From IMG/VR virus record IMGVR_UViG_3300020166_000010: a stretch of 64,000 bases of DNA; one strand, given 5' to 3'. This DNA is from a virus. Positions 23,498-48,359 of this stretch are shown piece after piece. A program made the position numbers and the translations under genes. Each line of letters starts with the position of its first letter. The stretch's first letter is position 1. The notes under the pieces were generated by a model that did not search any database, had not been told where the DNA came from, and worked only from the letters and a program-made list of their open reading frames with translations.

Positions 23498-24088
23498 TTA
23501 TTTATAATGTCCTCCGCCTAGCCAAAGTACGAAAGATTTTCTAGTTCCTTTAGTTACTGGTTTAACAGAATGGAATAAGTAGCTAGGAAATAAAACAACA
23601 TTTCCTTTTCCTCTAGGTGCAATTAAGTTATTTTTATCTAAGGATTCTCCTCCTTGCCAAAAGCATAGGTCTCCTCCTTCATATTCTGTACTATCTGATA
23701 ATTGAACAGTTATAGATACTTTTCTAATAGATAGGGCATGGTCGCCGACGTCTTGGTGCCAATCGTATTTACCAAACTCGGTAGCTTCATATTCAGTATA
23801 CTGTATTAATTCAGGCGCAGAGTGTAAATCAAAATTCCACAATTGGTTATTTGCTTCGCTTGCCATTTGTATTAATTTCTGGTAAAGCCATTCCCATTCC
23901 TCAGTTTGTGGAATCCATTTGATATTTGATTTTCTATCTTCAGTCTTTCCGCCAGCGGTAACTGCTCTATGGTATGGAATATTAGAAACTCCATCTTCAA
24001 TCCACTTCAATTCTTGAGGTGTAAACCCCTGATCAAACCAATAGTACTGGTTTGCCTCGTTTTCTTGTATTTCAAAAAGGTTATTCAT
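23498..24088 (-). CDS. 2OG-Fe(II) oxygenase, prolyl-hydroxylase-like
   Basis: WHQD, RKVS..QLS..EYEGG, FPS..H.V.PVT.G.RKS motifs (HxD..H..R). Confidence 0.9.
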   Translation of the reverse strand: MNNLFEIQENEANQYYWFDQGFTPQELKWIEDGVSNIPYHRAVTAGGKTEDRKSNIKWIPQTEEWEWLYQKLIQMASEANNQLWNFDLHSAPELIQYTEYEATEFGKYDWHQDVGDHALSIRKVSITVQLSDSTEYEGGDLCFWQGGESLDKNNLIAPRGKGNVVLFPSYLFHSVKPVTKGTRKSFVLWLGGGHYK

Positions 24089-25934
24089 TATCTGTATATG
24101 TTATATTTACTGCTCCTTCTTCTTTTCCAAATCTGGATTTTGCGTTGATAGGCCAATATGGATTTTCTTCATATGCCCAGTCATGTTGTCCAAGTTCTTC
24201 AAATCTTTCTTTAATTTGTTCGTTATATCTTGCTGCGATTGTACGTGTTCTTCTTTGGATATCAGCCCTAGATAAATCATGAGTATTTCTATGACCTTGA
24301 TTACTATATAAAAATTGAATATAGCTTAACTTAGGTATCTTACACATGATAGTATTTAAGAATGTTCTAATAATTAATTCGTAATCATCAACAACTGTTA
24401 AACTTCTATTATGTCCTCCAATTTCGAAATATGTAGATCTTCTCCATGCTCTAATGTGATTAGGAACTCCAACAATATGTCTAATTGTTTTTGGATTAAT
24501 ATTTTGTTGATTTGCAGGACTTAACATTCTACCTTGATATTCTTCATCTCGATAGTTACCATATCCTAATGCAAACCCAGGACCATACTTTTGATTTTGC
24601 CATTGTTCATTTACTTCAGCAGTATCTCCATAGAAGAATCCACACTCTGGATGTTTTTGCGCAGCGTTATGTAAATCTTGTGCACATGTTACTGCAAGTA
24701 AATCATCGTGATCTAGTTCTGCAATAATATACCCTCTAGCCATTGCGTTCGCTCTCCACTTAACCTCTCCAATAACACCACCTGATTTTTCTCTAAAATC
24801 ATATAGCTTAACTCTAGGATCGTTTGCTGCAATTTGCTCTGCAATCTTAAGTGTTTTACCACCGTCAGTTGAATCGTTCATTAATACCCATTCCCAATTT
24901 TCATAAGTCTGAGCAGCTACTGAATTGTAAGTGTTTATCAGTTTTTCACCTGTGTTATATATTGGAGTTGTAAAAGATATCATGCTATGATCATCCATGT
25001 TCGTCGGATCTAACATTGCGTTTTCAGAAACATTATATGCAATATCTCCTACATTTTTTAAATCTTCATCATTATCTATATTGATCCATTTTCTTCTAAA
25101 TTGAAGAGGTAGTTTTGATAGATATTTAAAATCAGAAGAACTCTTTCCTCGAGTTACTATTGCATCTGGTTTAAAACTAGATATATTTTTTCTAATGTCA
25201 GTATCGTCCTTTACATATTGAACCTCTAAGTTATCATCCTCATAGTCGAGTATTTTAGTAGTTTTCATAACTGGTTCCCCAGGTCCTATATATAAGATCC
25301 TAGGTAATTTAGGTGTTGATACTTTTTCTAGTTCATTATAATATGAAAGAATTTCATTGATCCAAACAAATGTATCTGGGTGATTCTTATACACTTCCTC
25401 GATAAAGAATCCATCAGCTGCGTAATCTGCAGTGAAACCGTATTTTTCAAAAAGTTCAGATCTAAATAGTATTTGTGCTATGTCGGTTTTTCTAAAACCT
25501 GTAGATTCTGGAGTAGCTTCTCTGTATTTTAATCCAGTAAAATCTTTACCATCAACTGCCTGTCCAACCATTATGATTTTCTTTTCAGAATTTACAGGTA
25601 ACATTGCAAAATCTTCGACTCTTTGATAGAATTCCGGATGCATTATATTGTCGTCATCTAATAAATAAAACCAAGAATGTTCTAAGCTTCTTATTAAATC
25701 GGATGTTTCAGGGTACATCATCCCGCCAGATTGTCCTTTAATAAAATGTATTGTTGTATTTGGTTGGTCTAAAATAGATAACAGATTTGCGTCAATATCC
25801 TTTAGTGCGCCAGTGTCAAACATAATATGCCAATGTACCTCTACTCCTCTTGTTTTAGAAGTATCAAATACAGTTGGTTGTATTTTTAATAAATTAGATG
25901 TTCTCGTACATCTTGTGATTACGTTAATTTTCAT
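24081..25934 (-). CDS. two-domain GT-A glycosyltransferase (GT2-like)
   Basis: N-terminal LDDDN GT-A domain; C-terminal TPIYN..DSTD..LDHDD..DDYEL GT2 domain. Confidence 0.88.
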   Translation of the reverse strand: MKINVITRCTRTSNLLKIQPTVFDTSKTRGVEVHWHIMFDTGALKDIDANLLSILDQPNTTIHFIKGQSGGMMYPETSDLIRSLEHSWFYLLDDDNIMHPEFYQRVEDFAMLPVNSEKKIIMVGQAVDGKDFTGLKYREATPESTGFRKTDIAQILFRSELFEKYGFTADYAADGFFIEEVYKNHPDTFVWINEILSYYNELEKVSTPKLPRILYIGPGEPVMKTTKILDYEDDNLEVQYVKDDTDIRKNISSFKPDAIVTRGKSSSDFKYLSKLPLQFRRKWINIDNDEDLKNVGDIAYNVSENAMLDPTNMDDHSMISFTTPIYNTGEKLINTYNSVAAQTYENWEWVLMNDSTDGGKTLKIAEQIAANDPRVKLYDFREKSGGVIGEVKWRANAMARGYIIAELDHDDLLAVTCAQDLHNAAQKHPECGFFYGDTAEVNEQWQNQKYGPGFALGYGNYRDEEYQGRMLSPANQQNINPKTIRHIVGVPNHIRAWRRSTYFEIGGHNRSLTVVDDYELIIRTFLNTIMCKIPKLSYIQFLYSNQGHRNTHDLSRADIQRRTRTIAARYNEQIKERFEELGQHDWAYEENPYWPINAKSRFGKEEGAVNITYTDNE

Positions 25935-25945
25935 TTAATGTGGTT

Positions 25946-26878
25946 TTATTGTTCAATGTCAAAGAAGAACATGTGGAAAAATCTTGCATTATCAATTGCA
26001 TCTCCAAAGTATTCAGTCGCTGCGTGTAATTGTGATGAGTTAAATATTACTAGTCTATTATATACATTTCCAATATCATCAATCTTTTCAAATTGAGTTC
26101 CATCGTAGAAATTCATTTCTTTATTAGTACCTCTAAATGTGTCTACGTATTCGTCTCCCATTCTAGATTCTTGACCTGGGAATGATGAAATTCCTGTAAC
26201 TTTACTTCGATACATTGCGGTTCCTGTCTGTGGAGGAGCATCTGGCGTTAAGTAAACCATTGCAGCGTACATTTGACTATCTACATGATATACTATAGGT
26301 TGATCTGCCGTACAGAATTGAAATACGCCATTAGCATATCCACCATTATTCCAGTTTGTTATTTTTTTACCTAATACGGTTTCAAGTTTTTCTTTAGTTC
26401 CATCAATAATATATCTAGACTGAGATCTCTGTCCTTTGTGGTATTTAGAAGGTAAAAACTCTAAATTGTTCATAGCATATTCCCTGATTAAATCTGGATC
26501 TGCGTAAAAATTATCAACAACAATAACATCTTTATCTATTCTGTTAAACCCGGATGCAGAAGCTGCCCATTTAGCTAAAGAAATAAGCTCAACTGGTTCT
26601 GCGTCGTTTAAGCTAACCCATAATTTTTTATTAATATCAGCATGTAGGATCATTATATTAAATCCTGTTTTTTCTGGAATTACTCCTTTATAAAAAGAAG
26701 AAACATCTGATCTTTTTTCCCATGAAATATTCAAGGATTTTCCATCTAATAAAACATCAGTTACTATAGTATCTTTATTTATTGAACCTACCCATCCTCT
26801 TGCATACCAATATCCATCGGTGCCTTTAGTAATAGAATCAATGTTTAATTTTACATTGTTTAAATTAGTTTCGTGCAT
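25946..26878 (-). CDS. DUF6445-like 2OG-Fe(II) oxygenase with N-terminal beta domain
   Basis: VIVVDNFY.DPD, H.D, YLTPDAP..GT, YNRLVIF..LH..R motifs. Confidence 0.75.
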   Translation of the reverse strand: MHETNLNNVKLNIDSITKGTDGYWYARGWVGSINKDTIVTDVLLDGKSLNISWEKRSDVSSFYKGVIPEKTGFNIMILHADINKKLWVSLNDAEPVELISLAKWAASASGFNRIDKDVIVVDNFYADPDLIREYAMNNLEFLPSKYHKGQRSQSRYIIDGTKEKLETVLGKKITNWNNGGYANGVFQFCTADQPIVYHVDSQMYAAMVYLTPDAPPQTGTAMYRSKVTGISSFPGQESRMGDEYVDTFRGTNKEMNFYDGTQFEKIDDIGNVYNRLVIFNSSQLHAATEYFGDAIDNARFFHMFFFDIEQ

Positions 26879-26995: not shown

Positions 26996-29470
26996 TTATA
27001 TTTGACCTTTAAGACCTCCGCCACCGCCTCCGGTTGCTGTTACTAATCCATTATAGAATGTAACATTGTGTCCCGTACCGAAGAAAATCGTTTCAGACAT
27101 GTAAGAAATAGTTCCGTTAGTTCCTTGATATCCTCTTGGTCCCTTTGGCCCTGTTGGCCCTAATGGTCCTGTTGGTCCTGTAAGTCCTTTATAACCTTGT
27201 GCTCCATCAGCTCCTTTAATTCCTGTAAATCCTTTAGCTCCTTGAGATCCGTTAGTACCTTTAAGACCGTGTGGTCCTCTTGGTCCATTGCTTCCAGTAA
27301 GTCCTTTATAACCCTGTGGTCCTTGTGGATTTGCTCCCTGTGGTCCTCTATATCCATTTCCTGTACTACTACCAGTAGCTCCTTGGAAACCTCTAACTGT
27401 TCCTGTAGGTCCTTTGTAACCTGTAAGTCCTTTGAAACCTGTATAACCTGTAATAGTAGATCCCGTAGTTCCTTTCAGACCCTGTGGTCCGGTATATCCT
27501 TGAACTCCTCTTGGTTCTGATCCTTCGTTACCCTGTGCTCCTTGAGGTCCAATAAATCCTTTAGCTCCTCCAGGTTGTGCTCCTTTATAACCTTGATCTC
27601 CTTTAGCTCCAGTTATACCCTGATATCCCTTAGGCATTGCTCCTTTAGAACCCTGTGATCCCTGTGCTCCTTGTGGTCCTCTATATCCAGTTGGAGAATC
27701 TCCAACTGGGCCGCCGTTACCATTTAACCCTTTATAACCTGTAAGTCCTTTATATGATGTTGGACGTGAACCTTGAACACCTTGTGGTCCTTTTGGTCCA
27801 GTGTTTCCGGTTGGCTGCGCTCCTTTATCTCCTTGAGCACCCTGTGCTCCTTGTGGTCCTCTTGATCCTCCAGGTTGTGCTCCTTTATTTCCTTGGAATC
27901 CTCTTGGCCCTGTTGGTCCAATAAATCCTTTTGGTTGAGCTCCTTTATATCCCTGAGGTCCTTGAGCTCCTTGAACTCCTCTATAACCAGTTGGATTTGC
28001 TCCTTGAAATCCTCTTTCTCCGTTTGCTCCTTTATAACCTGTTGCTCCTGTTGGTGAAGATCCTTGAACTCCTCTATAACCAGTATCTCCAATAAATCCA
28101 GTATACCCCTTTGGCATTGCTCCTTTTAATCCTTGGAAACCTCTTGGTCCTGTAGGTCCAGTTGGTGAAGTTGGTCTAGCTCCTTGGAAACCTCTTGGTC
28201 CCGTATTTCCAGTATCACCTGGAAGAGCGTTATACGCAGGGCCTGTTGGTCCTGTATATCCTGTTGGTCCGTTTGGTCCAATAAATCCTTTTGGACTTGC
28301 TCCGATATTACCCTGTGCTCCTTGGCTACCCTTAACTCCAGTATATCCTGTTGGATTTACTCCTGTATATCCTGTTGGTCCGTCTGATCCTTTATTTCCT
28401 TGGAAACCTCTGTTAGTACTTCCTTGAGTTCCTCTAATACCAGTTGCTCCTTGATAACCCTTTGGCCCGGTTGGTGAATTACCAACCATTCCTTGGAAAC
28501 CTCTTGGTCCAGTATCTCCTGTTTGTGCAGCCGGTGTACTTCCGGTATTTCCTTGGAAACCTCTTTCTCCAGTTGCTCCTTTAGATCCGACTGGATTTGA
28601 TCCCTGTGCTCCTTTGAAACCAGGATAACCTTCAGCTCCTTGAAAACCTTTTGGACTATTTCCAACGTCTCCTTGGAAACCTCTGTCTCCAGTTTGTCCT
28701 ACTTGTGCAGTTTGAGTTGAACCCTGAGCTCCTTTTAATCCAGTTGCTCCTTGTGAACCTTTATGTCCTTTTTGATTTGTACCTGCAGAACCTTGAAATC
28801 CTACATGTCCAACGAAACCAGTAGGTCCAACTGGGTTTAAACCCGTAGTACCTTGATCTCCTTGAAAACCTCTGAAACCTGTTGCTCCTGTTAATTGATC
28901 TCCCTGAAATCCTCTTGGTCCATCAGGTCCAATATCACCAACGTAAGCTGTAATTACATTACCCTGTGTTCCAGTTGATCCTTGATCTCCTTTTAATCCT
29001 TTAAGACCGTTAGTTACTTTACCTGGATCTCCAACTGTTCCTTGATTTCCTCTAAAACCTTCTGGTCCTTCTGGTGAATCTCCGACTATTCCTTGGAATC
29101 CTCTAAAACCTTGATCAGCAGTACCTTTATTTCCTTGAAAACCTCTATCTCCTTGAAAACCTATATTACCTTCGTAACCTTGATGTCCCTTTGGGCTGTC
29201 TCCTTGAAAACCTCTAAAACCAGTATCTCCACCCGGCTCTAACCCTGCAGAACCTTGAACTCCTTTATCTCCTTGAAACCCTCTATCTCCTTGAGAACCT
29301 TGAGAACCTTCAATACCTTGAAAACCTTGATCTCCTTGAAAACCTTTAGCTCCAACAGAACCTTGGTTTCCCTGGTCTCCCTTTAATTCAGGATAGTTGT
29401 TAGCATCAAAGTTACCAGCATGTAGGGGAGTTTCTCCCCCTACAAGTGATCCTGTATTTAATTTTGCCAT
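26996..29470 (-). CDS. collagen-like fibre chain A (periodic 5-residue interruptions)
   Basis: About 758 aa of Gly-X-Y with 32 G-x-x-x-x pentamers; short N- and C-terminal domains. Confidence 0.92.
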   Translation of the reverse strand: MAKLNTGSLVGGETPLHAGNFDANNYPELKGDQGNQGSVGAKGFQGDQGFQGIEGSQGSQGDRGFQGDKGVQGSAGLEPGGDTGFRGFQGDSPKGHQGYEGNIGFQGDRGFQGNKGTADQGFRGFQGIVGDSPEGPEGFRGNQGTVGDPGKVTNGLKGLKGDQGSTGTQGNVITAYVGDIGPDGPRGFQGDQLTGATGFRGFQGDQGTTGLNPVGPTGFVGHVGFQGSAGTNQKGHKGSQGATGLKGAQGSTQTAQVGQTGDRGFQGDVGNSPKGFQGAEGYPGFKGAQGSNPVGSKGATGERGFQGNTGSTPAAQTGDTGPRGFQGMVGNSPTGPKGYQGATGIRGTQGSTNRGFQGNKGSDGPTGYTGVNPTGYTGVKGSQGAQGNIGASPKGFIGPNGPTGYTGPTGPAYNALPGDTGNTGPRGFQGARPTSPTGPTGPRGFQGLKGAMPKGYTGFIGDTGYRGVQGSSPTGATGYKGANGERGFQGANPTGYRGVQGAQGPQGYKGAQPKGFIGPTGPRGFQGNKGAQPGGSRGPQGAQGAQGDKGAQPTGNTGPKGPQGVQGSRPTSYKGLTGYKGLNGNGGPVGDSPTGYRGPQGAQGSQGSKGAMPKGYQGITGAKGDQGYKGAQPGGAKGFIGPQGAQGNEGSEPRGVQGYTGPQGLKGTTGSTITGYTGFKGLTGYKGPTGTVRGFQGATGSSTGNGYRGPQGANPQGPQGYKGLTGSNGPRGPHGLKGTNGSQGAKGFTGIKGADGAQGYKGLTGPTGPLGPTGPKGPRGYQGTNGTISYMSETIFFGTGHNVTFYNGLVTATGGGGGGLKGQI

Positions 29471-29508
29471 GTTATTTTTATTCTTTTTTTATATAATTAA
29501 CTTATTGA

Positions 29509-32040
29509 TTATTGTATAAATCCGTCTGATACAATAAAGGCTGTTCCGTTATCATCCACGAAAGATCCGTTGAAACCATTACCAAGGGGTCCTGATCCGG
29601 CATAACCTTTTGGTCCTGCGAGACCTTGTGGTCCAAATCCAGTAGGTCCATTATTTCCTTGAGGTCCTCTTGGTCCAATAAATCCAGTTCCACCACCAGA
29701 TCCTTGAGGTCCTCTTGGTCCTGCATCACCAGCAGATCCTTGGAAACCTCTTAGAATTCCTCCAGTGTTTCCTTGGAATCCTCTTGCTCCTTGAGCTCCT
29801 ACTGCTTGGTTGTAACCAGTAGCTCCTTGTACACCTTGTACACCTTGAGCCCCTACAGCTCCTTGTGGTCCATTATTACCCTGTGGTCCTCTTGAACCTG
29901 TCGGTCCGACTGAACCGGTTGCTCCTTGTGGTCCCTTATTTCCTTGTGATCCTTGTGGACCGGTTGGTCCTTTATATCCTCCAAGTCCAGTTCCTCCAGT
30001 AACTCCTTGATTACCTCTTGGTCCTATATTACCTTGTGCTCCTTGAGCTCCTTGGAATCCTGATATCCCTCTGTCTCCAGTTGCTCCTTGAGGTCCTCTG
30101 TCTCCTACTGCTGAAGTAGTTCCGGTAAGTCCTTTGAAACCAATAAATCCTTTATAACCTTTTGGTCCAGTTGCACCCTGTGCTCCTGTTGCTCCTTGAG
30201 AACCTTGATTTCCTTTAGCTCCAGTATTTCCCTGTGATCCTGTTAATCCAGTTGCTCCTTTAAAACCAGTATAACCTTTTGCACCCTGTGCTCCTTGATT
30301 TCCTTGTGATCCGTTAGCTCCTGTTTTACCGATAAATCCAGTATAACCTGTTGCTCCGGTAGATCCTTGAGAACCTGTAACTCCAGTATAACCTGTTGCT
30401 CCGGTTGGTCCTTGATTTCCAACGGCTCCAGTTCCTCCAGTTGCTCCTTTAGCTCCAACAAGTCCAGTATATCCTTTAGCTCCAGTTGCACCTTGTGCTC
30501 CAGTAAAACCAGTAGGTCCTGTTGAACCTTTAGCTCCTTGTGCTCCTTGTGCTCCTTTTACATTAGTAAATCCTTGAGGTCCAGTTGGTCCTTGAGAACC
30601 TGTGTTACCTACTGCAGCTGTTGTTCCTGTTAATCCTTTATAACCTGTAGCTCCTTTTGCTCCTTGAGCTCCTTGAGTTCCTGTTAATCCTTTATAACCT
30701 GTAGCTCCTTTTGCTCCTTGTGCTCCTTGTGCTCCTTTAGGTTGTTGAGATCCTTGAGGTCCTTGTGCTCCTTTTGCTCCTTGAGAACCTTTAGTACCAG
30801 TTGCTCCTTTTAGTCCAGTTGCTCCTTGGAATCCTCTTTCACCACCTTGACCTTGGCTTCCGATAGCTCCCTGTGGTCCAGTTGATCCTTTTGCTCCTTG
30901 ATTTCCTTTTATTCCTTCAAATCCTGTTGAACCAACAACTCCTGTATAACCAATAGATCCTTGAAAACCTTGAAAACCAGTAGATCCTTTAGCACCCTGT
31001 ACTCCAGTAGCTCCTTGGAATCCCTTTGGTCCAGTAGACCCTTGTGGTCCTCTTCCACCAGCTCCTCCAGTTAATCCTTGGAAACCAGTTGCTCCACCGT
31101 TTCCTTGAGAACCTTGATTTCCTTTAGCTCCAGTATCTCCTTTAAGACCGTTAATTCCTGTAATACCGTTATATCCTGTAGAACCCTTAGCTCCTGTTAC
31201 TCCTTGAAAACCTTTAGCTCCAGTAGATCCCTGTGCTCCTTGTGATCCAGTAAATCCTTTATCTCCTTTAAGACCTTGAAATCCTCTTTCACCAGGATCT
31301 CCAGGTAAAGAATCTGAAGCAGTTGCTCCTTTAAATCCTTTAGCTCCTGTCGAGCCTTTAGCGCCCTGAGCTCCTTTAACTCCGTTAGTTCCAGGTAATC
31401 CTTCAAAACCAGTAGATCCTTTAGATCCCTGTGCTCCATCAACTCCGGTAAATCCTTTTAAACCAGTAGAACCCTGAGGCCCTCTAATTCCTTTAACTGA
31501 TGTTGCTCCTTTTGCTCCTTGAAATCCTCTTTCTCCAGTATCTCCTTGTGTTCCTTGGAAGCCTTTAATACCAACAGAACCTTGTGCTCCCTGGAAACCT
31601 CTTTCTCCATTAGTTCCTTTTATTCCCTGTGCTCCAGTAGAACCTTGAAATCCTTGAAGTCCAGTAGAACCTTGATCACCAACTTGTCCTTGATATCCAT
31701 TAGAACCTTTAGGACCTAATATACCTGTTATTCCTTTTTCTCCTCTAATTCCAGTCGCTCCGGTAAAACCTTGAAGACCTGTTGATCCTTGGTTACCTTT
31801 ATTACCGGCAGATCCTTGATCACCTTGACTACCTTGATAACCATTGGTTCCAACGAAACCTTGATTACCAGTAGTACCTTGATGGCCGACGTCACCGTCA
31901 GATCCAACGGATCCTTGAGATCCCTGAGATCCCAATTCACCGTTTGGTCCAATAAACTGAGGAAAATTCGTGCTATTAAGGTTACCAGTGTGTAGTACAA
32001 TATTACTGTCCAACGTAGTACCTAAGATAAATTTTGCCAT
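29509..32040 (-). CDS. collagen-like fibre chain B
   Basis: About 784 aa of near-continuous Gly-X-Y; the 30-aa N-terminus is paralogous to chain A. Confidence 0.92.
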   Translation of the reverse strand: MAKFILGTTLDSNIVLHTGNLNSTNFPQFIGPNGELGSQGSQGSVGSDGDVGHQGTTGNQGFVGTNGYQGSQGDQGSAGNKGNQGSTGLQGFTGATGIRGEKGITGILGPKGSNGYQGQVGDQGSTGLQGFQGSTGAQGIKGTNGERGFQGAQGSVGIKGFQGTQGDTGERGFQGAKGATSVKGIRGPQGSTGLKGFTGVDGAQGSKGSTGFEGLPGTNGVKGAQGAKGSTGAKGFKGATASDSLPGDPGERGFQGLKGDKGFTGSQGAQGSTGAKGFQGVTGAKGSTGYNGITGINGLKGDTGAKGNQGSQGNGGATGFQGLTGGAGGRGPQGSTGPKGFQGATGVQGAKGSTGFQGFQGSIGYTGVVGSTGFEGIKGNQGAKGSTGPQGAIGSQGQGGERGFQGATGLKGATGTKGSQGAKGAQGPQGSQQPKGAQGAQGAKGATGYKGLTGTQGAQGAKGATGYKGLTGTTAAVGNTGSQGPTGPQGFTNVKGAQGAQGAKGSTGPTGFTGAQGATGAKGYTGLVGAKGATGGTGAVGNQGPTGATGYTGVTGSQGSTGATGYTGFIGKTGANGSQGNQGAQGAKGYTGFKGATGLTGSQGNTGAKGNQGSQGATGAQGATGPKGYKGFIGFKGLTGTTSAVGDRGPQGATGDRGISGFQGAQGAQGNIGPRGNQGVTGGTGLGGYKGPTGPQGSQGNKGPQGATGSVGPTGSRGPQGNNGPQGAVGAQGVQGVQGATGYNQAVGAQGARGFQGNTGGILRGFQGSAGDAGPRGPQGSGGGTGFIGPRGPQGNNGPTGFGPQGLAGPKGYAGSGPLGNGFNGSFVDDNGTAFIVSDGFIQ

Positions 32041-32077
32041 GTTATTATTTTTATATTTTTATTTGTTTTATATATTG

Positions 32078-34828
32078 TTATCCGATATTTACACCATTCT
32101 GGATAGTACGTGGGCCGCTAGTCGTGTAGATTAAACCACTGTAACCTCCAACGGTATTGGTTCCTTGAGCTCCTTGTGGGCCTTTAGCTCCAGTACCAGA
32201 ACCACCTGAGGCTCCAGTATATCCTTGAGGTCCTCTTGCCGGTGCTGGTTGCCCAGTTGCACCTTGATAACCTTGAGGTCCAACACCTGATGCTGCAATT
32301 CCCTGTGCTCCTTGAGCTCCTTGCGCTCCGGTTGCTCCTTTATATCCTTGAACTCCTCTTGGTCCAGCATTTCCACTAACACCCTGAGCTCCTTGTGGTC
32401 CTCTTGGTCCAACTGGTCCGGTTATTCCTTTAGCTCCTTGAGGTCCTGTATAACCTTGAGCTCCTCTACCACCTTGAGTTCCTTGAGCTCCTCTTACAGT
32501 ACCTGCAAGTCCAATAAAACCTTTAAGTCCAGTTGAACCTTGCGGTCCTCTTGATCCCTGCGGTCCAGTTATTCCTACGTATCCCTTTGGTCCTGTTGAT
32601 CCTTGGAATCCTCTATGACCAGGTGCACCACTATAACCTTGTGCTCCTTGAGATCCTTTATATCCATCGGCTCCTTGGGTACCTCTTGGTGCCGCAGTTC
32701 CCTGTGGTCCAGTTGTTCCTTTATCACCAGTAGCTCCTTGTGGTCCTCTTGGTCCAGTAGATCCTTTAAACCCTGTATCACCTTTTAATCCTTGTGCTCC
32801 TCTTACACCCTGTGGTCCGAGATCTCCGACGGGTCCAGTATTTCCGATTGCCCCTTGGCGTCCGATAAATCCTTTTGGTCCAGTTGATCCTTGAGGTCCT
32901 TTAACTCCAGTTGCTCCAGTTGCTCCTTGATTACCTTTTGGTCCAGTTGCTCCTTGACTTCCTTTTGCTCCTTGAGGTCCAGTTGTTCCTTGACTTCCTT
33001 GAGGTCCAGTATTTCCTTGAGGCCCTCTAACAGTTCCAGTATCTCCAACTACTCCTTGAACCCCTTTGTTTCCAGTGGCTCCAGTTGCTCCTTGATTACC
33101 TTTAATTCCTTGGAATCCTCTGTCTCCGGTTGCTGCAGTAGATCCTTTAAGACCTTGTGCTCCTCTAACTCCTTGAACTCCTTGGAATCCTCTTGGTGCA
33201 GCAGTTCCCTGTGCTCCAGTGTTTCCTTGAACTCCAATAAATCCAGTTGGTCCTAAATCACCAGTTGCTCCGGTGTTTCCTTGAACTCCAATAAATCCTT
33301 TATCTCCTTTAGTTGCAGTTGGTGCGATATATCCAGTATCTCCTTGATATCCTCTTTCTCCAGTTGCTCCTTGATTTCCTTGCGCTCCTGTTATTCCAGT
33401 ATATCCTTTTGCACCAGTAGTACCTTTATATCCTTGGAATCCTCTTGGTCCGCTATCTCCTTGGTTTCCTCTTTGACCAACGTCTCCTTGAACTCCTTTT
33501 GAACCCTGTGGTCCGACTGGTCCAAGAACTCCTTGTGGTCCAGCATATCCAGTATTTCCTTGAAATCCAATTGATCCCGTAGAACCTTTATCTCCAGTTG
33601 CTCCTTGGGGTCCAGTATAACCTTTTGCTCCTTGTGCTCCAAGAGGTCCAGTATAACCTTTTGCTCCTTGTGATCCTTTAAAACCTTGATCTCCTTTAGT
33701 TCCAACGTTTCCAACAACACCTTGAGTTCCTTGGAATCCTCTTGAACCAGTATTACCTTGGGCTCCTGTTGCTCCTTTGAAACCTTTTGCTCCTTGTGCT
33801 CCTTTAAAACCTCTTTCACCAACGATACCAGCATCTCCAGTAGATCCTTGATAACCAGTTGCTCCAGTAGATCCTTGTGCTCCTATTACTTTATTAATAC
33901 CAGCGTCTCCTTGAGTTCCTTGATTTCCTTGAAAACCTCTGTCTCCTACGGGTCCGTTAATACCTGTTGTTCCTTTAATTCCTTTGTCTCCTTGGAATCC
34001 TCTGGCTCCATTTGAACCATTATTTCCTTTTGCTCCTTGAGGTCCGTTATATCCAACGTCTCCTTGTGCTCCTCTGTTTCCATCAAGTCCTTTATAACCT
34101 GTTGCTCCAGTTGAACCTTTAAAACCTTGATCTCCGATAACTCCATCAGAACCTTGATCACCTTTATATCCGGTAACTCCTTGATTTCCCTGAACTCCAA
34201 TAGGTCCAGTAACTCCTTTGTTTCCGACAGATCCTTGGAATCCTCTGGCACCATCTGCGCCTGTTAAACCTTTAGTACCTTGAGTACCTTTAGTTCCTTG
34301 GTTTCCTTGGAATCCTCTTTCACCTTGATTTCCAACAATACCTTTAGATCCTTGAAATCCTCTTTCACCTTTAGCTCCAGTAGTACCTGAAATACCAATA
34401 TCTCCTACTAATCCTTTACTACCACGTGATCCTTCACTACCAGTATCTCCTACTAATCCAGTATTTCCGCGAGAACCTTTATCTCCACGAAACCCTTCAT
34501 CACCAGTATTTCCTTTTGCTCCTTTTAAAGAAGGGAAATTACCAGGTATAAAATTACTAGGTCTTAGTACTAAATTACCGCCGATTGTTGAATCAGGCTT
34601 AAAGCTTCCGCCACCATCAAAAATACCACCTGCGATAATTGCAGAATCAGTACTCCTAATAGTTAACACATTCCCCGTAGGGAATGTGTTTAACTCTTCT
34701 AGGTAAGACGGCGTATAGACGATAGCTGAATCTTGGTCAATTCCTGCTCTGTTCGAAATTTCATCGATCTGAGCTTGGAATTCTCCAGTAGACTGTACTA
34801 GTTTTATCGCTATTTTATTAAATGCCAT
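32078..34828 (-). CDS. collagen-like fibre chain C (extended N-terminus)
   Basis: About 789 aa of Gly-X-Y; residues 74-102 align with the N-termini of chains A and B. Confidence 0.92.
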   Translation of the reverse strand: MAFNKIAIKLVQSTGEFQAQIDEISNRAGIDQDSAIVYTPSYLEELNTFPTGNVLTIRSTDSAIIAGGIFDGGGSFKPDSTIGGNLVLRPSNFIPGNFPSLKGAKGNTGDEGFRGDKGSRGNTGLVGDTGSEGSRGSKGLVGDIGISGTTGAKGERGFQGSKGIVGNQGERGFQGNQGTKGTQGTKGLTGADGARGFQGSVGNKGVTGPIGVQGNQGVTGYKGDQGSDGVIGDQGFKGSTGATGYKGLDGNRGAQGDVGYNGPQGAKGNNGSNGARGFQGDKGIKGTTGINGPVGDRGFQGNQGTQGDAGINKVIGAQGSTGATGYQGSTGDAGIVGERGFKGAQGAKGFKGATGAQGNTGSRGFQGTQGVVGNVGTKGDQGFKGSQGAKGYTGPLGAQGAKGYTGPQGATGDKGSTGSIGFQGNTGYAGPQGVLGPVGPQGSKGVQGDVGQRGNQGDSGPRGFQGYKGTTGAKGYTGITGAQGNQGATGERGYQGDTGYIAPTATKGDKGFIGVQGNTGATGDLGPTGFIGVQGNTGAQGTAAPRGFQGVQGVRGAQGLKGSTAATGDRGFQGIKGNQGATGATGNKGVQGVVGDTGTVRGPQGNTGPQGSQGTTGPQGAKGSQGATGPKGNQGATGATGVKGPQGSTGPKGFIGRQGAIGNTGPVGDLGPQGVRGAQGLKGDTGFKGSTGPRGPQGATGDKGTTGPQGTAAPRGTQGADGYKGSQGAQGYSGAPGHRGFQGSTGPKGYVGITGPQGSRGPQGSTGLKGFIGLAGTVRGAQGTQGGRGAQGYTGPQGAKGITGPVGPRGPQGAQGVSGNAGPRGVQGYKGATGAQGAQGAQGIAASGVGPQGYQGATGQPAPARGPQGYTGASGGSGTGAKGPQGAQGTNTVGGYSGLIYTTSGPRTIQNGVNIG

Positions 34829-34876: not shown

Positions 34877-37800
34877 TTAATCGAATGAGAATGTAATGTC
34901 TCCATTTCCGTCTCTTTCAATTCTTGCTGTTGGGTTACCATTAGCATCGTTGAAATAAATAGCTTTATCATTGGCGATTGTTATTGAATCTCCATCAAAT
35001 GCTCCAGTTTCTCCTTGGAATCCTTGATCTCCTTTAGCTCCAGTTGCTCCTTGTGCTCCAGTATCTCCTTTGAATCCTTGATCTCCTTTTGCTCCAGTAT
35101 CTCCTTTGAATCCTTGGAATCCTTGATCTCCTTTTGCTCCGGTTGCTCCTTGTGCTCCAGTATCTCCTTTGAAACCTTGATCTCCTTTAATACCTTGAAT
35201 ACCATCGTCTCCTTTGAATCCTTGATCTCCTTTTGCTCCGGTTGCTCCTTGTGCTCCAGTATCTCCTTTTGCTCCAGTATCTCCTTTGAAACCTTGATCT
35301 CCTTTAATACCTTGAATACCATCGTCTCCTTTGAATCCTTGATCTCCTTTAGCTCCAGTTGCTCCTTGTGCTCCAGTATCTCCTTTGAAACCTTGATCTC
35401 CTTTAATACCTTGAATACCTTGCTCTCCAGTATCTCCTTTGAAACCTTGATCTCCTTTAAGACCTTGTTCTCCTTGAACTCCTTGAATACCATCGTCTCC
35501 TTTAGTACCTTGAACTCCTTGAATACCATCGTCTCCTTTAGTACCTTGAACTCCTTGAATACCTTGCTCTCCGGTATCTCCTTTGAAACCTTGATCTCCT
35601 TTAGCTCCTAAAGTACCATCAGTACCTTGAACTCCTTGGAAACCTTGATCTCCTTTAGCTCCAGTATCTCCTTTGAAACCTTGATCTCCTTTTGCTCCAG
35701 TATCTCCTTTGAATCCTTGGAATCCTTGATCTCCTTTAGCTCCAGTTTCTCCTTGATCTCCTTTAATACCTTGTTCTCCTTGATCTCCTTTAAGACCATC
35801 GATACCTTGGAAACCTTGATCACCTTTTGCTCCTTGGAAACCTTGATCTCCTTGTGCTCCTTGGAAACCTTGGAAACCTTGATCTCCTTGTGCTCCAATT
35901 TTCATTGGTGTAAATGAAACTAATAATTGTCCATTCTTATCAGGCTGGTTAACAGCAGCTGCTGTCATGTGTTCGTTAGACGAAGTACCACCGGCATATC
36001 CGTTGTTTGAACCACCAACTCTTTCCATATCTAATCTAAGATCTCCTCTTCCACCAGAACCTAATATAATAGATGCATTAGAAGCTTCGTATAAGTGATA
36101 TTTAGTTGAATCACCATTCTTAGATATTTTTACGTAAATCTTATCATAACCATCGTTAACCATGTTAGCGAATAAAGAATTCATGTGGTTAATATCTTCT
36201 AATCCGTTTGCGATATCTGAGAACCACCATTCTTGAGAACCGCTGTAAATGAATGCATTAGCTTCCGTATGTGATAATTGATTTACATTTGTATATTTAC
36301 TATCAGAGAAAGTAACACCATCGTATATTACTGATAAACCACCAGCATTACCTATAGTACCTTGGAAACCTTGATCTCCTTTTTCTCCTTGATCTCCTTT
36401 AGTTCCTTTTTCTCCTTGATCTCCTTGGAAACCTTGGAAACCTTGATCTCCTTTAGCTCCAGTTTCTCCTTGATCTCCTTTGAAACCTTGATCTCCTTTA
36501 AGACCATCAATACCTTGGAAACCTTGATCGCCTTGGAATCCTTGGAAACCTTGGAAACCTTGATCTCCTTTAGCTCCTAAAGTACCAGACTCTCCTTGGA
36601 AACCTTGATCTCCTTTAATACCTTGTTCTCCAGTATCTCCTTTGAAACCTTGATCTCCTTTAATACCTTGAATACCTTGTTCTCCAGTATCTCCTTTGAA
36701 ACCTTGGTCTCCTTTAATACCTTGAATACCATCGTCTCCTTTTAGACCTTGAATACCATCGTCTCCTTTGAAACCTTGATCTCCTTTAATACCTTGAATA
36801 CCTTGTTCTCCAGTATCTCCTTTAAGACCTTGATCTCCTTTAATACCTTGAATACCTTGCTCTCCAGTATCTCCTTTGAAACCTTGATCTCCTTTAAGAC
36901 CTTGTTCTCCTTGAACTCCTTGAATACCATCGTCTCCTTTAGTACCTTGAACTCCTTGAATACCTTGCTCTCCTTGAACACCTTGCTCTCCAGTATCTCC
37001 TTTGAAACCTTGATCTCCTTTAATACCTTGAATACCTTGTTCTCCAGTATCTCCTTTGAAACCTTGATCTCCTGTAGTACCTTGAACTCCGATAACTCCT
37101 TGTTCTCCTTGAACACCTTGCTCTCCAGTATCTCCTTTGAATCCTTGGTCTCCTTGAATACCTTGTTCTCCAGTATCTCCTTTGAAACCTTGATCTCCTT
37201 TAATACCTTGAATACCTTGCTCTCCAGTATCTCCTTTAAGACCTTGTTCTCCTTGAACTCCTTGAATACCTTGCTCTCCAGTATCTCCTTTAAGACCAGT
37301 ATCTCCTTGAATACCATCGTCTCCTTTAGCACCTTGAACTCCGATAACTCCTTGTTCTCCTTGAACACCTTGCTCTCCAGTATCTCCTTTAAGACCTTGT
37401 TCTCCTTGAACTCCTTGAATACCATCGTCTCCTTTAGTACCTTGAACTCCGATAACTCCTTGTTCTCCTTGAATACCTTGTTCTCCAGTATCTCCTTTAA
37501 GACCAGTTTCTCCTTGAATACCTTGTTCTCCAGTATCTCCTTTAAAACCTTGATCTCCTGTAGTACCCTGAACTCCGATAACTCCTTGTTCTCCTTGAAT
37601 ACCCTGTTCTCCTTGAATACCTTGTTCTCCAGTATCTCCTTTAAAACCTTGATCTCCTTGAATACCTTGAATACCATCGTCTCCTTTGAAACCTTGATCT
37701 CCTTTAATACCTTGAATACCTTGTTCTCCAGTGTCTCCTTGGAAACCTTGAATACCTTGAATACCATCGTCTCCTTTAGTACCTTGAACTCCGATAACTC

Positions 37801-38395
37801 CTTGTTCTCCTTGGAAACCTTGAATACCTTGTTCTCCAGTTTCTCCTTTGAAACCTTGAATACCTTGTTCTCCAGTATCTCCTTTAAAACCTTGATCTCC
37901 TTGAATACCCTGTTCTCCAGTATCTCCTTTGAAACCTTGATCTCCTTTAAGACCAGTTTCTCCTTGAATACCCTGTTCTCCTTGGTCTCCTTTAAGACCT
38001 TGTTCTCCTTGAATACCTTGAATACCCTGTTCTCCTTGATCTCCTTTAAGACCTTGTTCTCCTTGATCTCCTTTAAGACCATCTACTCCTTGTGTTCCTT
38101 GATCTCCTTGGAAACCTTGAATACCTTGTTCTCCTTGAATACCCTGTTCTCCTTGAAGACCTTGATCTCCTTGAATACCTTGTTCTCCAGTATCTCCTTT
38201 AAGACCTTGATCTCCTTGAATACCTTGAATACCTTGTTCTCCTGTATCTCCTTGAAAACCTTGATCTCCTTGAAAACCTTGAACCCCATCAATACCTTGA
38301 TCTCCTTGGAAACCTTGATCTCCTTGCGTACCTTGATATCCGGATCCTTGATCTCCCTGAGGACCTGCGGTAGAAATATATGCTGAATATGCCAT
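34877..38395 (-). CDS. acidic, nearly Pro-free collagen-like protein with internal globular domain
   Basis: GEQ/GDQ/GFK/GDT repeats in two blocks separated by a roughly 150-aa non-collagen domain. Confidence 0.92.
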   Translation of the reverse strand: MAYSAYISTAGPQGDQGSGYQGTQGDQGFQGDQGIDGVQGFQGDQGFQGDTGEQGIQGIQGDQGLKGDTGEQGIQGDQGLQGEQGIQGEQGIQGFQGDQGTQGVDGLKGDQGEQGLKGDQGEQGIQGIQGEQGLKGDQGEQGIQGETGLKGDQGFKGDTGEQGIQGDQGFKGDTGEQGIQGFKGETGEQGIQGFQGEQGVIGVQGTKGDDGIQGIQGFQGDTGEQGIQGIKGDQGFKGDDGIQGIQGDQGFKGDTGEQGIQGEQGIQGEQGVIGVQGTTGDQGFKGDTGEQGIQGETGLKGDTGEQGIQGEQGVIGVQGTKGDDGIQGVQGEQGLKGDTGEQGVQGEQGVIGVQGAKGDDGIQGDTGLKGDTGEQGIQGVQGEQGLKGDTGEQGIQGIKGDQGFKGDTGEQGIQGDQGFKGDTGEQGVQGEQGVIGVQGTTGDQGFKGDTGEQGIQGIKGDQGFKGDTGEQGVQGEQGIQGVQGTKGDDGIQGVQGEQGLKGDQGFKGDTGEQGIQGIKGDQGLKGDTGEQGIQGIKGDQGFKGDDGIQGLKGDDGIQGIKGDQGFKGDTGEQGIQGIKGDQGFKGDTGEQGIKGDQGFQGESGTLGAKGDQGFQGFQGFQGDQGFQGIDGLKGDQGFKGDQGETGAKGDQGFQGFQGDQGEKGTKGDQGEKGDQGFQGTIGNAGGLSVIYDGVTFSDSKYTNVNQLSHTEANAFIYSGSQEWWFSDIANGLEDINHMNSLFANMVNDGYDKIYVKISKNGDSTKYHLYEASNASIILGSGGRGDLRLDMERVGGSNNGYAGGTSSNEHMTAAAVNQPDKNGQLLVSFTPMKIGAQGDQGFQGFQGAQGDQGFQGAKGDQGFQGIDGLKGDQGEQGIKGDQGETGAKGDQGFQGFKGDTGAKGDQGFKGDTGAKGDQGFQGVQGTDGTLGAKGDQGFKGDTGEQGIQGVQGTKGDDGIQGVQGTKGDDGIQGVQGEQGLKGDQGFKGDTGEQGIQGIKGDQGFKGDTGAQGATGAKGDQGFKGDDGIQGIKGDQGFKGDTGAKGDTGAQGATGAKGDQGFKGDDGIQGIKGDQGFKGDTGAQGATGAKGDQGFQGFKGDTGAKGDQGFKGDTGAQGATGAKGDQGFQGETGAFDGDSITIANDKAIYFNDANGNPTARIERDGNGDITFSFD
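36360..38365. repeat. highly homogenised 9n-nt coding tandem repeats
   Basis: Recurrent ccttgaataccttgttctccagtatctcctttgaaaccttgatct units; a second block lies at about 35005-35895. Confidence 0.85.
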
Positions 38396-39317: not shown

Positions 39318-39908
39318 ATGATAAATAGTATAATGAATAGTATTACTAAGAAAATAGTTAGAGATTACATATATTTTAGAGAAACATTAGATGACGTAAA
39401 ATCTATTTCTAGTGATGCAGAAGGTGAATTCAGAGATGCGATGCACGATCATAATGAAGTTGCACTAACGGCTCTCACTCCGCCGGAAGGAGCACCTCCT
39501 ATTAAAAAAATTGATGAAGAACCTGTTGTAAAATTCGAAGACAGGCTCTTTAAAAAGCTTTTTAGAAAGATAGCAGTATTATGCCATCCAGATAAATTAG
39601 ATGATTCTTATTCTGAAAGAGAAGCTGTATTTTTAAAAAAATGTTATGAAGATCTCAATACTTCTAATCAAACTTATGATTGGGGATTATTGTTGAAGGT
39701 TGCCATGGAACTGGATGTTGAAATTCCGGAATTAAGCGATGAGCAATTTACTAATATTAATAATAATATAGAATCTATTAAAAAAACTATTAGTCAGTTT
39801 GAAGGATCTATGGCCTATAAATGGTATACCCTCTCCGACGCTGACGCCAAGAAAGGGTATTTAGAAAGCTGTGCTTCTATATTTATGAATAGTTTAAATA
39901 ATCGTTAA
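39318..39908 (+). CDS. J-domain-containing protein
   Basis: KKLFRKIAVLCHPDK J-domain core inside a coiled-coil protein. Confidence 0.7.
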   Translation: MINSIMNSITKKIVRDYIYFRETLDDVKSISSDAEGEFRDAMHDHNEVALTALTPPEGAPPIKKIDEEPVVKFEDRLFKKLFRKIAVLCHPDKLDDSYSEREAVFLKKCYEDLNTSNQTYDWGLLLKVAMELDVEIPELSDEQFTNINNNIESIKKTISQFEGSMAYKWYTLSDADAKKGYLESCASIFMNSLNNR

Positions 39909-40687
39909 ACGTCCCACTTGTCCGTTAGATGGCATCTTACATAAACCGGTGCTTGATATGCAATACCATTAGGATATTCTGATTGTAGTCTCGTATAAAA
40001 GTCTACATCTTCTGATGTGTCTTTAGATATAACATCCCTCCATTTTGTTGATAGATTAGTTTTGTGCATAAATAACCAAGGTGCCATTATCTGTCTGTTT
40101 GGTTTTACTTGAACTGGCTTCCATGCATCTGATAAACCTTCTATCTGAATTGCAGGCGTTTCGGAAGGATCTACTATAGCATTTCCATTAGCTAGCTCAG
40201 TTGAAACGGACTCATGGTCAAACCATGAAGTATTTATCCACCAATCTTTTTCTGGGTTTGCGTTAAAATATAAAAGAGATGTCATTGTCGCGTTTGGCAT
40301 TAAAAAATCATCTGAATCCATATACATTACAACGTGACCTGTTGCTGCAGCAGCGCCTAATCTTCTACCGAATCCTCTATAATATCTTCCTTTATCTTCT
40401 ATTTCCTCGTACATTTGAGGAGTATCTGTTCTATCGAAATATATTAGTTTTATATTTGGCGTGTTCTTGTGTGATCTATTATATAGTTGATGCGTTTTAT
40501 TACATCCATCTGCAACTATAATAAGTTCGCAATTTTTATATGTTTGGTTTTGAAAACTTTCGACTGCCCTGTGAAATTTACCGATAGGATCCTTTCTTGA
40601 ATTTTCGTAGTTTTCTAGGTTTACTTGCATCACTATAGATATTTTTATCTTGTTTAGTGATTCGAATATTTCTTTAAAGTTGCTCAT
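39905..40687 (-). CDS. GT2-family glycosyltransferase
   Basis: S..NQTY..ELIIVADG, YMDSDD and ED motifs. Confidence 0.85.
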   Translation of the reverse strand: MSNFKEIFESLNKIKISIVMQVNLENYENSRKDPIGKFHRAVESFQNQTYKNCELIIVADGCNKTHQLYNRSHKNTPNIKLIYFDRTDTPQMYEEIEDKGRYYRGFGRRLGAAAATGHVVMYMDSDDFLMPNATMTSLLYFNANPEKDWWINTSWFDHESVSTELANGNAIVDPSETPAIQIEGLSDAWKPVQVKPNRQIMAPWLFMHKTNLSTKWRDVISKDTSEDVDFYTRLQSEYPNGIAYQAPVYVRCHLTDKWDV

Positions 40688-46476: not shown

Positions 46477-47145
46477 TTATCTTTTTTTAATAATTTCATC
46501 AATGATTCCGTACTTCTTAGCTTCAGCAGCGCTCAACCAAAAATCTCTAGTAGCGTCTTTCATTACTACCTCTGGCTTTTTACCACAGTATTCTCCTAAT
46601 AAAACAAACAATTCTTTGTTTACATCTTGCCAATTTTTCCAATCAATTTCAGCATCCTGTATATTTCCACTGAAACCCCCAGAAGACTGGTGTAACATTG
46701 TTGTAGAGTGCTTTAGTGACATTCTCTTACCTTTAGTTCCTGCTCCTAATAATACTGAACCCATTGATGCGGCCATTCCTGTGTTGATCGTACGTATATC
46801 ACACTTAATATAATCCATAACATCTACCATAGAAAGTCCTGATTTAACAGAACCTCCTGGAGAATCAATGTGCATTGTAATATCTCCTTCTGATGTCGTA
46901 TCTAAAAACATCAATTGAGCCTGTACTATCGTAGACATATTGTCATTAACAGGACCTGCAACCCATAACAATCTATCAGCCATCAATCTAGAAAAGATAT
47001 CCATTTGAGTAACTCTCATTTCTCTTTCTTCTAAAATATAGGGAGTCATTGAATTTTCGATCTGCTTTTCGTAGTAGTTCATGTTTGAAGAACTAACACT
47101 GTGATCGCTCATTGCGTATTTTTTAAACTCGTTACTGTAATTCAT
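46477..47145 (-). CDS. clpP: ATP-dependent Clp protease proteolytic subunit
   Basis: TPYILEER..DIFSRL, SPGGSV, AASMG, HQ and RDFW motifs; Bacteroidota-type propeptide. Confidence 0.95.
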   Translation of the reverse strand: MNYSNEFKKYAMSDHSVSSSNMNYYEKQIENSMTPYILEEREMRVTQMDIFSRLMADRLLWVAGPVNDNMSTIVQAQLMFLDTTSEGDITMHIDSPGGSVKSGLSMVDVMDYIKCDIRTINTGMAASMGSVLLGAGTKGKRMSLKHSTTMLHQSSGGFSGNIQDAEIDWKNWQDVNKELFVLLGEYCGKKPEVVMKDATRDFWLSAAEAKKYGIIDEIIKKR

Positions 47146-47443: not shown

Positions 47444-47447
47444 TATA

Positions 47448-48302: not shown

Positions 48303-48332
48303 ATATTATATTATTAAAATATCTTACTAATA

Positions 48333-48359
48333 TTATACTACTATTTTAGAGAAAGTTTA
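48333..48359 (-). promoter_or_regulatory. putative middle promoter TAAAC-N17-TATAA
   Basis: Motif upstream of the TS-fold gene. Confidence 0.6.

Follow-up and report, generated by a model that had tools for sequence, protein, structure and literature searches.

Introduction

To our knowledge, mixed-chain collagens have been documented only in animals. The vertebrate C1q stalk is one ABC collagen helix made of three different chains whose genes are clustered. Gly-X-Y breaks that occur in only some of these chains at one level bend the stalk, an earlier case of a helix shaped by one-sided interruptions. Collagen IV (alpha1-alpha1-alpha2, alpha3-alpha4-alpha5) contains about twenty interruptions, many of which lie at corresponding levels in the different chains; the type in which four residues separate two glycines is among them. 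The spacing of the interruptions is irregular, and neither a strict period nor a chain consistently short of one residue is known to us in collagen IV. Chain choice relies on large C-terminal gC1q heads in C1q and on NC1 domains in collagen IV. Proline-poor, Gln/Thr/Lys-rich Gly-X-Y repeats (PF01391) are found in Scl1/Scl2, BclA, the collagen-repeat tail fibres of phages and the mimivirus collagens. Characterised prokaryotic and phage collagen-like proteins are described as homotrimers, and the mimivirus collagens are neighboured by modifying enzymes (hydroxylase/glycosyltransferase) (PMC8968730). Register-specific ABC collagen peptides, about 30 residues long and without interruptions, have been designed using axial Lys-Asp pairs (bioRxiv 10.1101/2024.05.21.595195).

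Here we report three collagen chains, A, B and C, of an uncultured marine giant phage, encoded on a 64,000-nucleotide stretch of DNA, hereafter the window. Like C1q, they are three different chains from clustered genes that would form one ABC helix. However, the C1q helix comprises about 80 residues with one break, whereas A/B/C extend over about 790 levels with 32 periodic nodes in one chain and carry short caps and tails in place of gC1q heads; no sequence relationship to C1q was found. With collagen IV they would share a long interrupted heterotrimeric helix, but their period is strict and they have no NC1 domain. The A/B/C helix is proline-poor and of the same Gln/Thr/Lys-rich type as the prokaryotic and viral proteins; the phage context is that of the collagen tail fibres, and modifying-enzyme neighbours occur as in mimivirus. 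Unlike chain A, none of the prokaryotic or phage collagens has been reported to contain a periodic single-chain skip. We found no published equivalent of the A/B/C design, or of a periodic node at which one strand places five residues over six levels, in the literature.

Results and discussion

The collagen gene cluster

Four collagen genes, D, C, B and A, follow each other on the minus strand with intergenic gaps of 48, 37 and 38 nt; all features described below lie on the same strand. Chain A (26996..29470, 824 aa) consists of an N-cap (residues 1-30), a collagen helix (31-785) and a C-tail (786-824), chain B (29509..32040, 843 aa) has an N-cap (1-30) and a helix (31-824), and chain C (32078..34828, 916 aa) comprises an N-terminal domain (1-72), a cap (73-102), a helix (103-897) and a tail (898-916). 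Chain D (34877..38395, 1172 aa), a separate collagen with a globular insert of about 150 aa, was used as an internal control. Collagen (PF01391) was the sole Pfam match in A, B and C (E-values 1.9e-63, 2.4e-109 and 5.6e-111), and this search returned no dedicated chain-selection domain of the C-propeptide, NC1, NC2 or gC1q type. Beyond the extra N-terminal domain of C, the non-collagenous parts amount to the 30-residue caps and tails of 19-39 residues. As noticed originally, both are similar among the chains: the pre-helix caps (A, 29381..29470; B, 31951-32040; C, 34523-34612), of the type L-H-x-G-N-F-x-x-x-N-Y-P-x-L-K-G in chain A, share 9-10 of 30 residues pairwise, and the tails have a hairpin-like x-x-N/D-G-x-I/V motif in common.

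Downstream of chain A, genes for a DUF6445 oxygenase-like protein (25946-26878), a GT2 glycosyltransferase (24081-25934) and a 2OG-Fe(II) oxygenase (23498-24088) adjoin the cluster in all relatives compared. These are candidate fibre modifiers; the collagen genes are flanked in total by two genes of 2OG-oxygenase type and at least three of glycosyltransferase type.

A common axial lattice

A scripted Gly register assigned 192-245 regular Gly-X-Y triplets per chain and substantiated the 20-residue unit of chain A, which is strict over 30 consecutive units (about residues 95-715; 27326..29188), each consisting of five triplets and a terminal G-x-x-P-x. Interruptions occur at residues 130, 150, ... 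690, spaced 20 apart, and the one spacing slip noticed earlier is indeed compensated, the break expected at 570 lying at 567 and the following one, at 590, being back on the lattice. The 32 pentamers counted before resolved into 26 pentamers, mostly G-x-x-P-x, and six octamers; since every octamer combines a pentamer with a Gly-less triplet after it, the 20-residue row length remains constant over 30 rows. Helix lengths, given by hand count as about 758, 784 and 789 residues, were near these values but shifted to 755 (A), 794 (B) and 795 (C) in the scripted parse. When every odd unit was padded to a multiple of three to obtain axial levels, a pentamer of A thus occupying six, the chains measured 789, 798 and 804 levels, or 263, 266 and 268 triplet equivalents. 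Hence, the predicted values of about 262-263 for all three proved close, but the chains are not equal: end-to-end lengths agree only within 1-2%, the differences being located in the irregular last 60 or so residues.

Sequence autocorrelation showed peaks at 20/40/60 for A; those of B and C lay at 21/42/63. Once the A pentamers were assigned six levels, residues other than Gly at Gly positions fell on lattice phases 0 or 3 in 36/39 cases in A, 8/8 in B and 6/8 in C, and a side-by-side layout revealed coinciding breaks of the three chains near levels 207, 396-404, 438-446, 459-464 and 609-614. In the mostly uninterrupted chain B, 19-20 of 32 units have a Thr at lattice phase 20 (uncorrected for 7 phases, p is about 1e-4 to 2e-3). 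The mapping of the pentamer was decided by the number of A-involving pairs, which reached 37 with six levels and fell to 18 with three and 10 with nine. A pentamer read as one triplet plus a two-residue bulge was ruled out by the value of 18. Tandem Repeats Finder detected just one short 60-bp array with 1.9 copies in gene A, indicating that the period is maintained at the protein level and does not stem from recent DNA amplification.

Charge complementarity between chains

Inter-chain contacts were scored with the contact geometry known from collagen peptide work, and the best of six registers was chosen. The register with B leading, C in the middle and A trailing at zero offset yielded 63 inter-chain salt bridges and 6 repulsive pairs, a net score of 57 compared to 21±5.7 after triplet shuffling (maximum 43 in 1000) and 14-17 for the reverse cyclic orders. 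For every chain, zero offset alone gave the maximum among 85 shifts (z = 6.1, 6.4, 4.6), and each of the three interfaces, scored alone, ranked first or second of 85. The C-to-A and A-to-B interfaces ranked first in the window as well as in the related contigs L002 and L011. Axial Lys-Asp pairs numbered 35 in B-C-A versus 17±3.4 when shifted and 4-11 in homotrimers. The predicted interfaces consist mainly of the pair type used in designed ABC peptides, Lys in Y with Asp in X of the following strand, and this pair type selects a single register; in the natural protein, however, the code extends over about 420 levels. The complementarity recurs in L002 (net 62) and also in L011 and L012.

The homotrimers AAA, BBB and CCC scored 22-42, equal to their own shuffle means, and BBC-type and BCC-type trimers 27-42. 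The control, chain D as a homotrimer, gave 143 vs 54±11, and 85 vs 29±9; judged by its sequence, D is thus strongly self-complementary and of the homotrimer type, and would lie outside an ABC fibre. Non-Gly identity between chains at zero shift was at or below background (z = -2.2, +0.4, -2.3), so that the inter-chain match is not explained by common descent; the same values ruled out a reading of A, B and C as collinear paralogs with residues still in common. Registers were not discriminated by axial cation-pi or Gln-aromatic pairs (z = 1.5-1.9). Arg-Gly-Phe motifs would provide 39-47 axial cation-pi pairs per homotrimer, and homotrimers may therefore not be unstable.

Length covariation in relatives

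The comparison covered only about four independent lineages. A second viral scan, with the neighbouring DUF6445 protein, yielded the same four contigs as the first. Independent variation of chain lengths, which the original prediction had named as evidence against itself, was not seen: A/B/C track each other at about 560, 790 and 835 levels, with 831/840/843 levels in L002-L004 and 561/about 561/558 in L012, the exception being L011 A as assembled. Helix lengths of B and C agree in every contig including L011 (794/795, 836/836, 837/836, 833/832). The length of chain D (1172, 1279, 897 and 927 aa in the window and relatives) varies independently of A/B/C. The differences of 40, 42 and 42 aa in A, B and C of relatives correspond to recent, near-identical two-unit tandem duplications (110-126 of 120-126 nt). 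In A, the 40-aa duplication of L001-L004 maps to codon 261 (28688..28690); the matching sites, at each of which 42 aa are duplicated in relatives, lie near 31080 in B and near 33796 in C. On the axial scale, the start of the duplication is level 240 in A, 241-246 in B and 242 in C.

In L011, the duplication is present in B and C and absent from A, leaving a 42-level mismatch as assembled. The downstream part of its chain A is complementary to B and C at no shift other than -42. In one run, a 119-nt unitig located where the repeat would be expected showed about 2.2-2.5 times the flank depth, with no excess in a second run, and public contigs over L011 chain A are fragmentary with only a hint of a collapsed repeat. 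On this indirect evidence, the missing duplication is probably an assembly collapse. The relative L012, only 42-49% identical, retained the 20-aa period: its chain A lattice has the same phase, with a spacing of 41 (= 20 + 21) wherever a node is absent. B-C-A was again the best register (26 vs 12, 11 and 3 for homotrimers), with z = 4.9 for C-to-A at zero shift and z = 5.3 for the first helix of B. L012 also has a globular insert of about 170 aa in mid-helix of B and a Hint-like C-terminal domain in A, both of which would fit separate homotrimeric fibres too.

Proposed assembly and alternatives

Four independent tests, namely the common lattice, the register-specific charge complementarity, the coordinated duplications and the conservation at 42-49% identity, strongly supported, in silico, the proposal that the three chains belong to one ABC heterotrimer and that 20 residues of A are equivalent to 21 residues of B and C. 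We infer from these computed patterns that such a trimer physically forms, and we regard it as likely that A, B and C are its three strands, with caps at zero offset, B-C-A stagger, a 21-level lattice and A pentamers bridging the nodes. The conserved 30-residue caps would bring the chains together at zero offset, and the first Gly after the caps marks the offset at which the chains are complementary. Lys in Y and Asp in X of the next strand, mostly axial, would set the stagger with B leading, C in the middle and A trailing. At the collagen rise of 0.286 nm per residue, a helix of about 263 triplets would extend over about 226 nm, and its lattice of 21 axial levels (seven triplets) over about 6.0 nm. 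Each node would have five residues of chain A (G-x-x-P-x) across six levels; since A regains the same register relative to B and C afterwards, the pentamer would bridge the node stretched or otherwise non-helical. Five or six nodes at which B and C also have no Gly would be full breaks and likely hinges. The fibre may be located on the virion, with the extra N-terminal domain of C as putative anchor and the fast-evolving C-tails as putative distal tip.

Separate homotrimeric fibres AAA, BBB and CCC of equal length, for instance side by side from the virion and with a lattice inherited from a common ancestor, appear unlikely to us. Such fibres would agree with the cap and tail that each chain owns, with the axial cation-pi pairs, with the mid-helix globular domain of L012 B, a kind common in homotrimeric phage fibres, and with L011 A, which as assembled is two units shorter than B and C. 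However, A, B and C show no charge self-complementarity above shuffles, whereas D does, and the match between chains is specific to zero shift and one cyclic order, is seen again at 42-49% identity and, given the background-level identity, does not reflect common descent. A constraint on equal length would moreover not put three duplications at the same axial level. This coincidence includes A and thus also speaks against an assembly of B and C alone (B2C or BC2) beside a break-rich, more flexible homotrimer of A, which we consider very improbable. The lengths of B and C do match in every contig, and A is the mismatching chain in L011; yet both interfaces involving A hold the first rank among 85 shifts in the window and also in L002 and L011, BBC-type and BCC-type trimers stay well below the 57 of B-C-A, and L011 A still complements B and C at -42 past the duplication site.

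Equally remote is a 20/21-residue period that is an ancestral tandem-repeat relic without structural role, or that merely spaces hydroxylation or glycosylation sites evenly without effect on shape. The flanking oxygenase and glycosyltransferase genes and the node motif, which contains Pro plus Lys or Thr, would suit modification sites, a reading that is compatible with the heterotrimer. A relic is at odds with the single 1.9-copy array in gene A, and despite high divergence of the units the lattice shows no net drift over a run of 30 and has kept its phase in L012, which argues for selection on the spacing itself. In the ABC heterotrimer, the nodes may affect shape or flexibility, or may serve as sites for the neighbouring hydroxylases and glycosyltransferases.

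The original prediction had drawn on the 7/2 helix, in which a chain's superhelix repeats every 21 residues, and this geometry is correct. If the phage helix is of the 7/2 type, 21 levels would make one superhelical turn and all 32 nodes would face the same side, so that their small bends would sum to a fixed intrinsic curvature; a helix nearer 10/3 would instead form a slow coil. That the one-residue deficit of A at every 21st level represents a shape code, and the 226-nm heterotrimeric fibre is pre-curved with its shape written in one strand, nevertheless strikes us as doubtful.

Should the three chains assemble as proposed, a register-specific ABC collagen would exist naturally outside animals, contrary to the working view of prokaryotic-type collagens as homotrimers (PMC8968730). 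Composition and register control are the main obstacle for heterotrimeric recombinant collagens; the phage fibre would offer an evolved solution about 790 levels long, built from three short-capped chains that could probably be expressed in bacteria. The periodic node would provide a clean system for the effects of single-chain interruptions on triple-helix stiffness or shape, a question that bears on collagen IV and glycine-mutation diseases. For phage biology, the cluster suggests that marine giant phages carry very long fibres that are probably modified; the host of this phage is presumably a marine Bacteroidota.

The N-terminal domain of chain C and a distant relative

The N-terminal domain of C (residues 1-72) matched no known family, and AlphaFold2 modelled it with a pLDDT of 34. 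Its N-terminal 110 residues gave no match in a word-index protein search or by tblastn against 50,697 deposited phage genomes. A profile search of 1.84 billion proteins with the C N-terminus returned six matches: one near-identical fragment, two fragments of a more distant C-like chain and three weak ones with no evident relation to the fibre. Complex prediction from the three N-terminal pieces, with A as partner, reached an ipSAE of 0.33 (median of three runs) compared to 0.02 for the best control, with a partner pLDDT of at least 71 and runs agreeing in at least 84% of contacts, a weak indication that does not separate hetero- from homotrimers and that a collagen-like partner may attain by likeness to solved triple helices. 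Among the calibration cases, 58 of 80 solved complexes and 2 of 110 mismatches came up to the mark, and passes at 0.60 or below comprised 7 of the 80 solved complexes and both of these mismatches.

L013, the sole contig of the distant C-like chain, is 4.2 kb long, of low coverage and with an apparently broken C-like reading frame, and was for these reasons left out of the length comparison. A C-terminal Peptidase_S74 autoprocessing domain, as in phage fibres with this intramolecular chaperone, was absent from A, B, C and the D of the window by Pfam. The D-like gene in L013, however, encodes such a domain (23 bits vs a cut-off of 22), placing the gene cluster among phage fibres.

A 20-residue period in chain A and a common lattice

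The Gly register of the chains was walked by script. Chain A (26996-29470, minus strand) has a break at intervals of 20 residues between residues 130 and 690 and, when written in rows of 20, each row consists of five triplets and one pentamer G-x-x-P-x (a node), as originally predicted. A single node comes early, at 567, and the offset is made good at 590, so that the claimed immediate compensation of the one irregular spacing was recovered as well. Six rows contain, after the pentamer, a triplet with another residue in place of its Gly (e.g., GNVIT-AYV), and the row length stays constant throughout. Since the 20-residue units are mutually diverged and a search of the gene for a long 60-bp DNA array found none, we concluded that the period is held by selection. 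Chains B (29509-32040, minus strand) and C (32078-34828, minus strand) depart little from regularity, each having 8-10 odd units.

For comparison, odd units were padded until their length was a multiple of three, so that a pentamer occupied six levels, and levels were numbered from the first Gly after the cap, the conserved 30-residue segment just before the helix. The nodes of chain A then fell at levels 102 + 21n. On the two lattice phases of A, 'Gly positions' lacking Gly were found in 8 of 8 cases in B and 6 of 8 in C (36 in A itself), and in a side-by-side layout all three chains break jointly near levels 207, 396-404, 438-446, 459-464 and 609-614. Autocorrelation of B and C peaked at 21/42/63 residues, aromatic residues showed a periodicity of 21 residues in both, and Thr occupied phase 20 in 20 of the 32 units of chain B. 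Residue identity between chains was no higher at zero shift than in shifted alignments, and left-over homology was therefore rejected as the source of the shared register. The phase-20 Thr of B is the Y position just before the node, although B is uninterrupted there; in the B-C-A model its level is that of the Gly opening the pentamer of A.

Charge complementarity

Contacts were scored with the collagen geometry of a one-residue stagger and lateral plus axial Y-to-X contacts, and opposite-charge and like-charge contacts were counted over every composition and register. The scored pair types followed those of designed heterotrimers (bioRxiv 10.1101/2024.05.21.595195). One cyclic order gave a net score of 38-57 over its three registers, the reverse order 14-17. 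The best register had B leading, C in the middle and A trailing, with 63 salt bridges versus 6 repulsions (net 57; triplet-shuffle null 21 ± 5.7, maximum 43 in 1000). The score fell whenever a single chain was moved by ±3 to ±126 levels (z = 6.1, 6.4 and 4.6), and every interface on its own ranked first or second among 85 shifts. Axial Lys-Asp was the dominant pair (15, 14 and 6 at the three predicted B-C-A interfaces), amounting to 35 in B-C-A versus 4-11 in homotrimers; the same axial pair serves as the code in designed peptides (bioRxiv 10.1101/2024.05.21.595195). The homotrimers AAA, BBB and CCC scored at their shuffle means. Chain D, a separate collagen used as internal control, reached 143 versus 54 ± 11 and 85 versus 29 ± 9, the self-complementarity that a homotrimer should have. 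Counting the pentamer of A as three or nine levels reduced the A-involving pairs to a half or a quarter, which shows that six axial levels correspond to five residues of A.

Related loci

Scans of viral and metagenome contigs revealed six loci that share the gene order of the window (L001-L004, L011 and L012). In L001-L004, whose chain A is 85-87% identical to that of the window, A is longer by 40 aa and B and C by 42 aa each. The added lengths stem from tandem duplications whose copies are near-identical (110-126 of 120-126 nt). The duplications start at levels 240 (A), 241-246 (B) and 242 (C). Because the duplicated pieces of A, B and C are unrelated in sequence to one another, gene conversion between paralogs was excluded as their source. 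The length of D varies independently (1172, 1279, 897 and 927 aa). At 42-49% identity, L012 has a helix shorter by about 230 levels in each chain (A 561, B 249 + 303 + insert, C 558 levels), and B-C-A is again the best register. Its chain A retains the lattice phase of the window, with a spacing of 41 residues where one node is missing, and the second helix of its B fits best when the globular insert counts as 9-12 levels, length alone predicting 9. The 20-residue period expected in relatives is hence kept in L012, and the expected matching of triplet numbers holds for L001-L004 and L012, but not for L011 as assembled.

In L011 (chain A 75% identical), B and C carry a duplication that A lacks, and past the duplication site only a shift of A by -42 levels gives complementarity to B and C (13 versus 3.2 ± 2.9). 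Collapse of a 120-nt repeat during assembly is the likeliest reason: in one seawater run, public contigs are interrupted on either side of a 119-nt unitig that lies where expected and has a depth of 25 versus 8-12 in its flanks. A second run showed the same contig breaks without the extra depth, and a real, length-mismatched variant is the less likely reading.

The insert in the B ortholog of L012 (L012:4861-7203, residues ~280-455) is a ~170-residue globular segment of no known family, which breaks the helix exactly at level 249, the node where A of this locus is without its usual pentamer. The last ~170 residues of the A ortholog (L012:7228-9510) form a domain opening C-L-I-A-G-T and closing T-H-N, with sub-threshold Pfam matches to Hint_2/Vint at its start and Intein_splicing at its end. 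Judged by these matches, it looks like a self-cleaving Hint-type module, which would be present on just one strand of the proposed trimer.

Proposed trimer and genomic setting

Lattice, complementarity and relatives together provide good in silico support for the ABC heterotrimer of the original prediction, with 20 residues of A equivalent to 21 of B and C, and we consider it highly probable. In such a trimer the caps would align the three chains, Lys-Asp pairs would set their order, and nodes, at which the trailing chain lacks one residue, would recur along the helix every 6 nm. By a simple estimate six levels span ~17 Å, a distance that five residues reach only if almost fully extended; as proline hinders this extension, each node may plausibly be locally strained or kinked. 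Depending on helix symmetry, such strains might sum to a programmed curvature, though with fairly low probability; the nodes could equally tune fibre flexibility, or display Pro/Lys/Thr to neighbouring oxygenases and glycosyltransferases. Heterotrimeric collagens whose interruptions are aligned between chains, as proposed here for a phage, occur in animals (C1q, collagen IV). Sequence and domain searches found no family for the extra 72-residue N-terminal domain of C, which is the obvious candidate anchor. The C-terminal tails of the chains evolve fast, a trait of host-binding tips.

Chain D (34877-38395, minus strand) is a highly repetitive acidic/basic collagen with KGD and KGE motifs, which includes a globular insert of ~150 aa and is strongly self-complementary in the manner of a homotrimer. 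Recent tandem repeats abound in its DNA, and its length varies between 897 and 1279 aa in close relatives. On L013, a distant, low-coverage contig, a D-like collagen gene (L013:1-1791) has at its end a Peptidase_S74 intramolecular chaperone domain (23 bits versus a cut-off of 22), and a C-like gene comes one small gene later, linking the cluster to the fibre genes of phages.

The four consecutive collagen-like genes occupy a G+C-richer block (0.39-0.46 at 26-38 kb, versus 0.30-0.37 across the window). They are bracketed, at 23498-26878 and 39905-41883, by two 2OG-oxygenase-type and three glycosyltransferase-type genes: DUF6445 (oxygenase-like), a GT2 glycosyltransferase and a 2OG-Fe(II) oxygenase (2OG-FeII_Oxy_3) downstream, a second GT2 and a DUF2827 gene upstream. 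These neighbours and the cyanophage relatives of the DUF6445 protein, one annotated as prolyl 4-hydroxylase, suggest a collagen-modification set. Judged by other genes of the window (baseplate-hub-like protein, head-maturation-protease-like ClpP, ClpC, UvdE, thymidylate synthase), the source is probably a tailed phage of very large size. One protein has its best relatives in uncultured 'huge phage' genomes and in phages of Bacteroidota. The public runs containing a close relative are seawater metagenomes. At 46477-50317, the ClpP-like protease, which matches phage head-maturation proteases too, adjoins the ClpC/ClpB-type protein, a 658-aa double AAA+ ATPase with a UVR motif.
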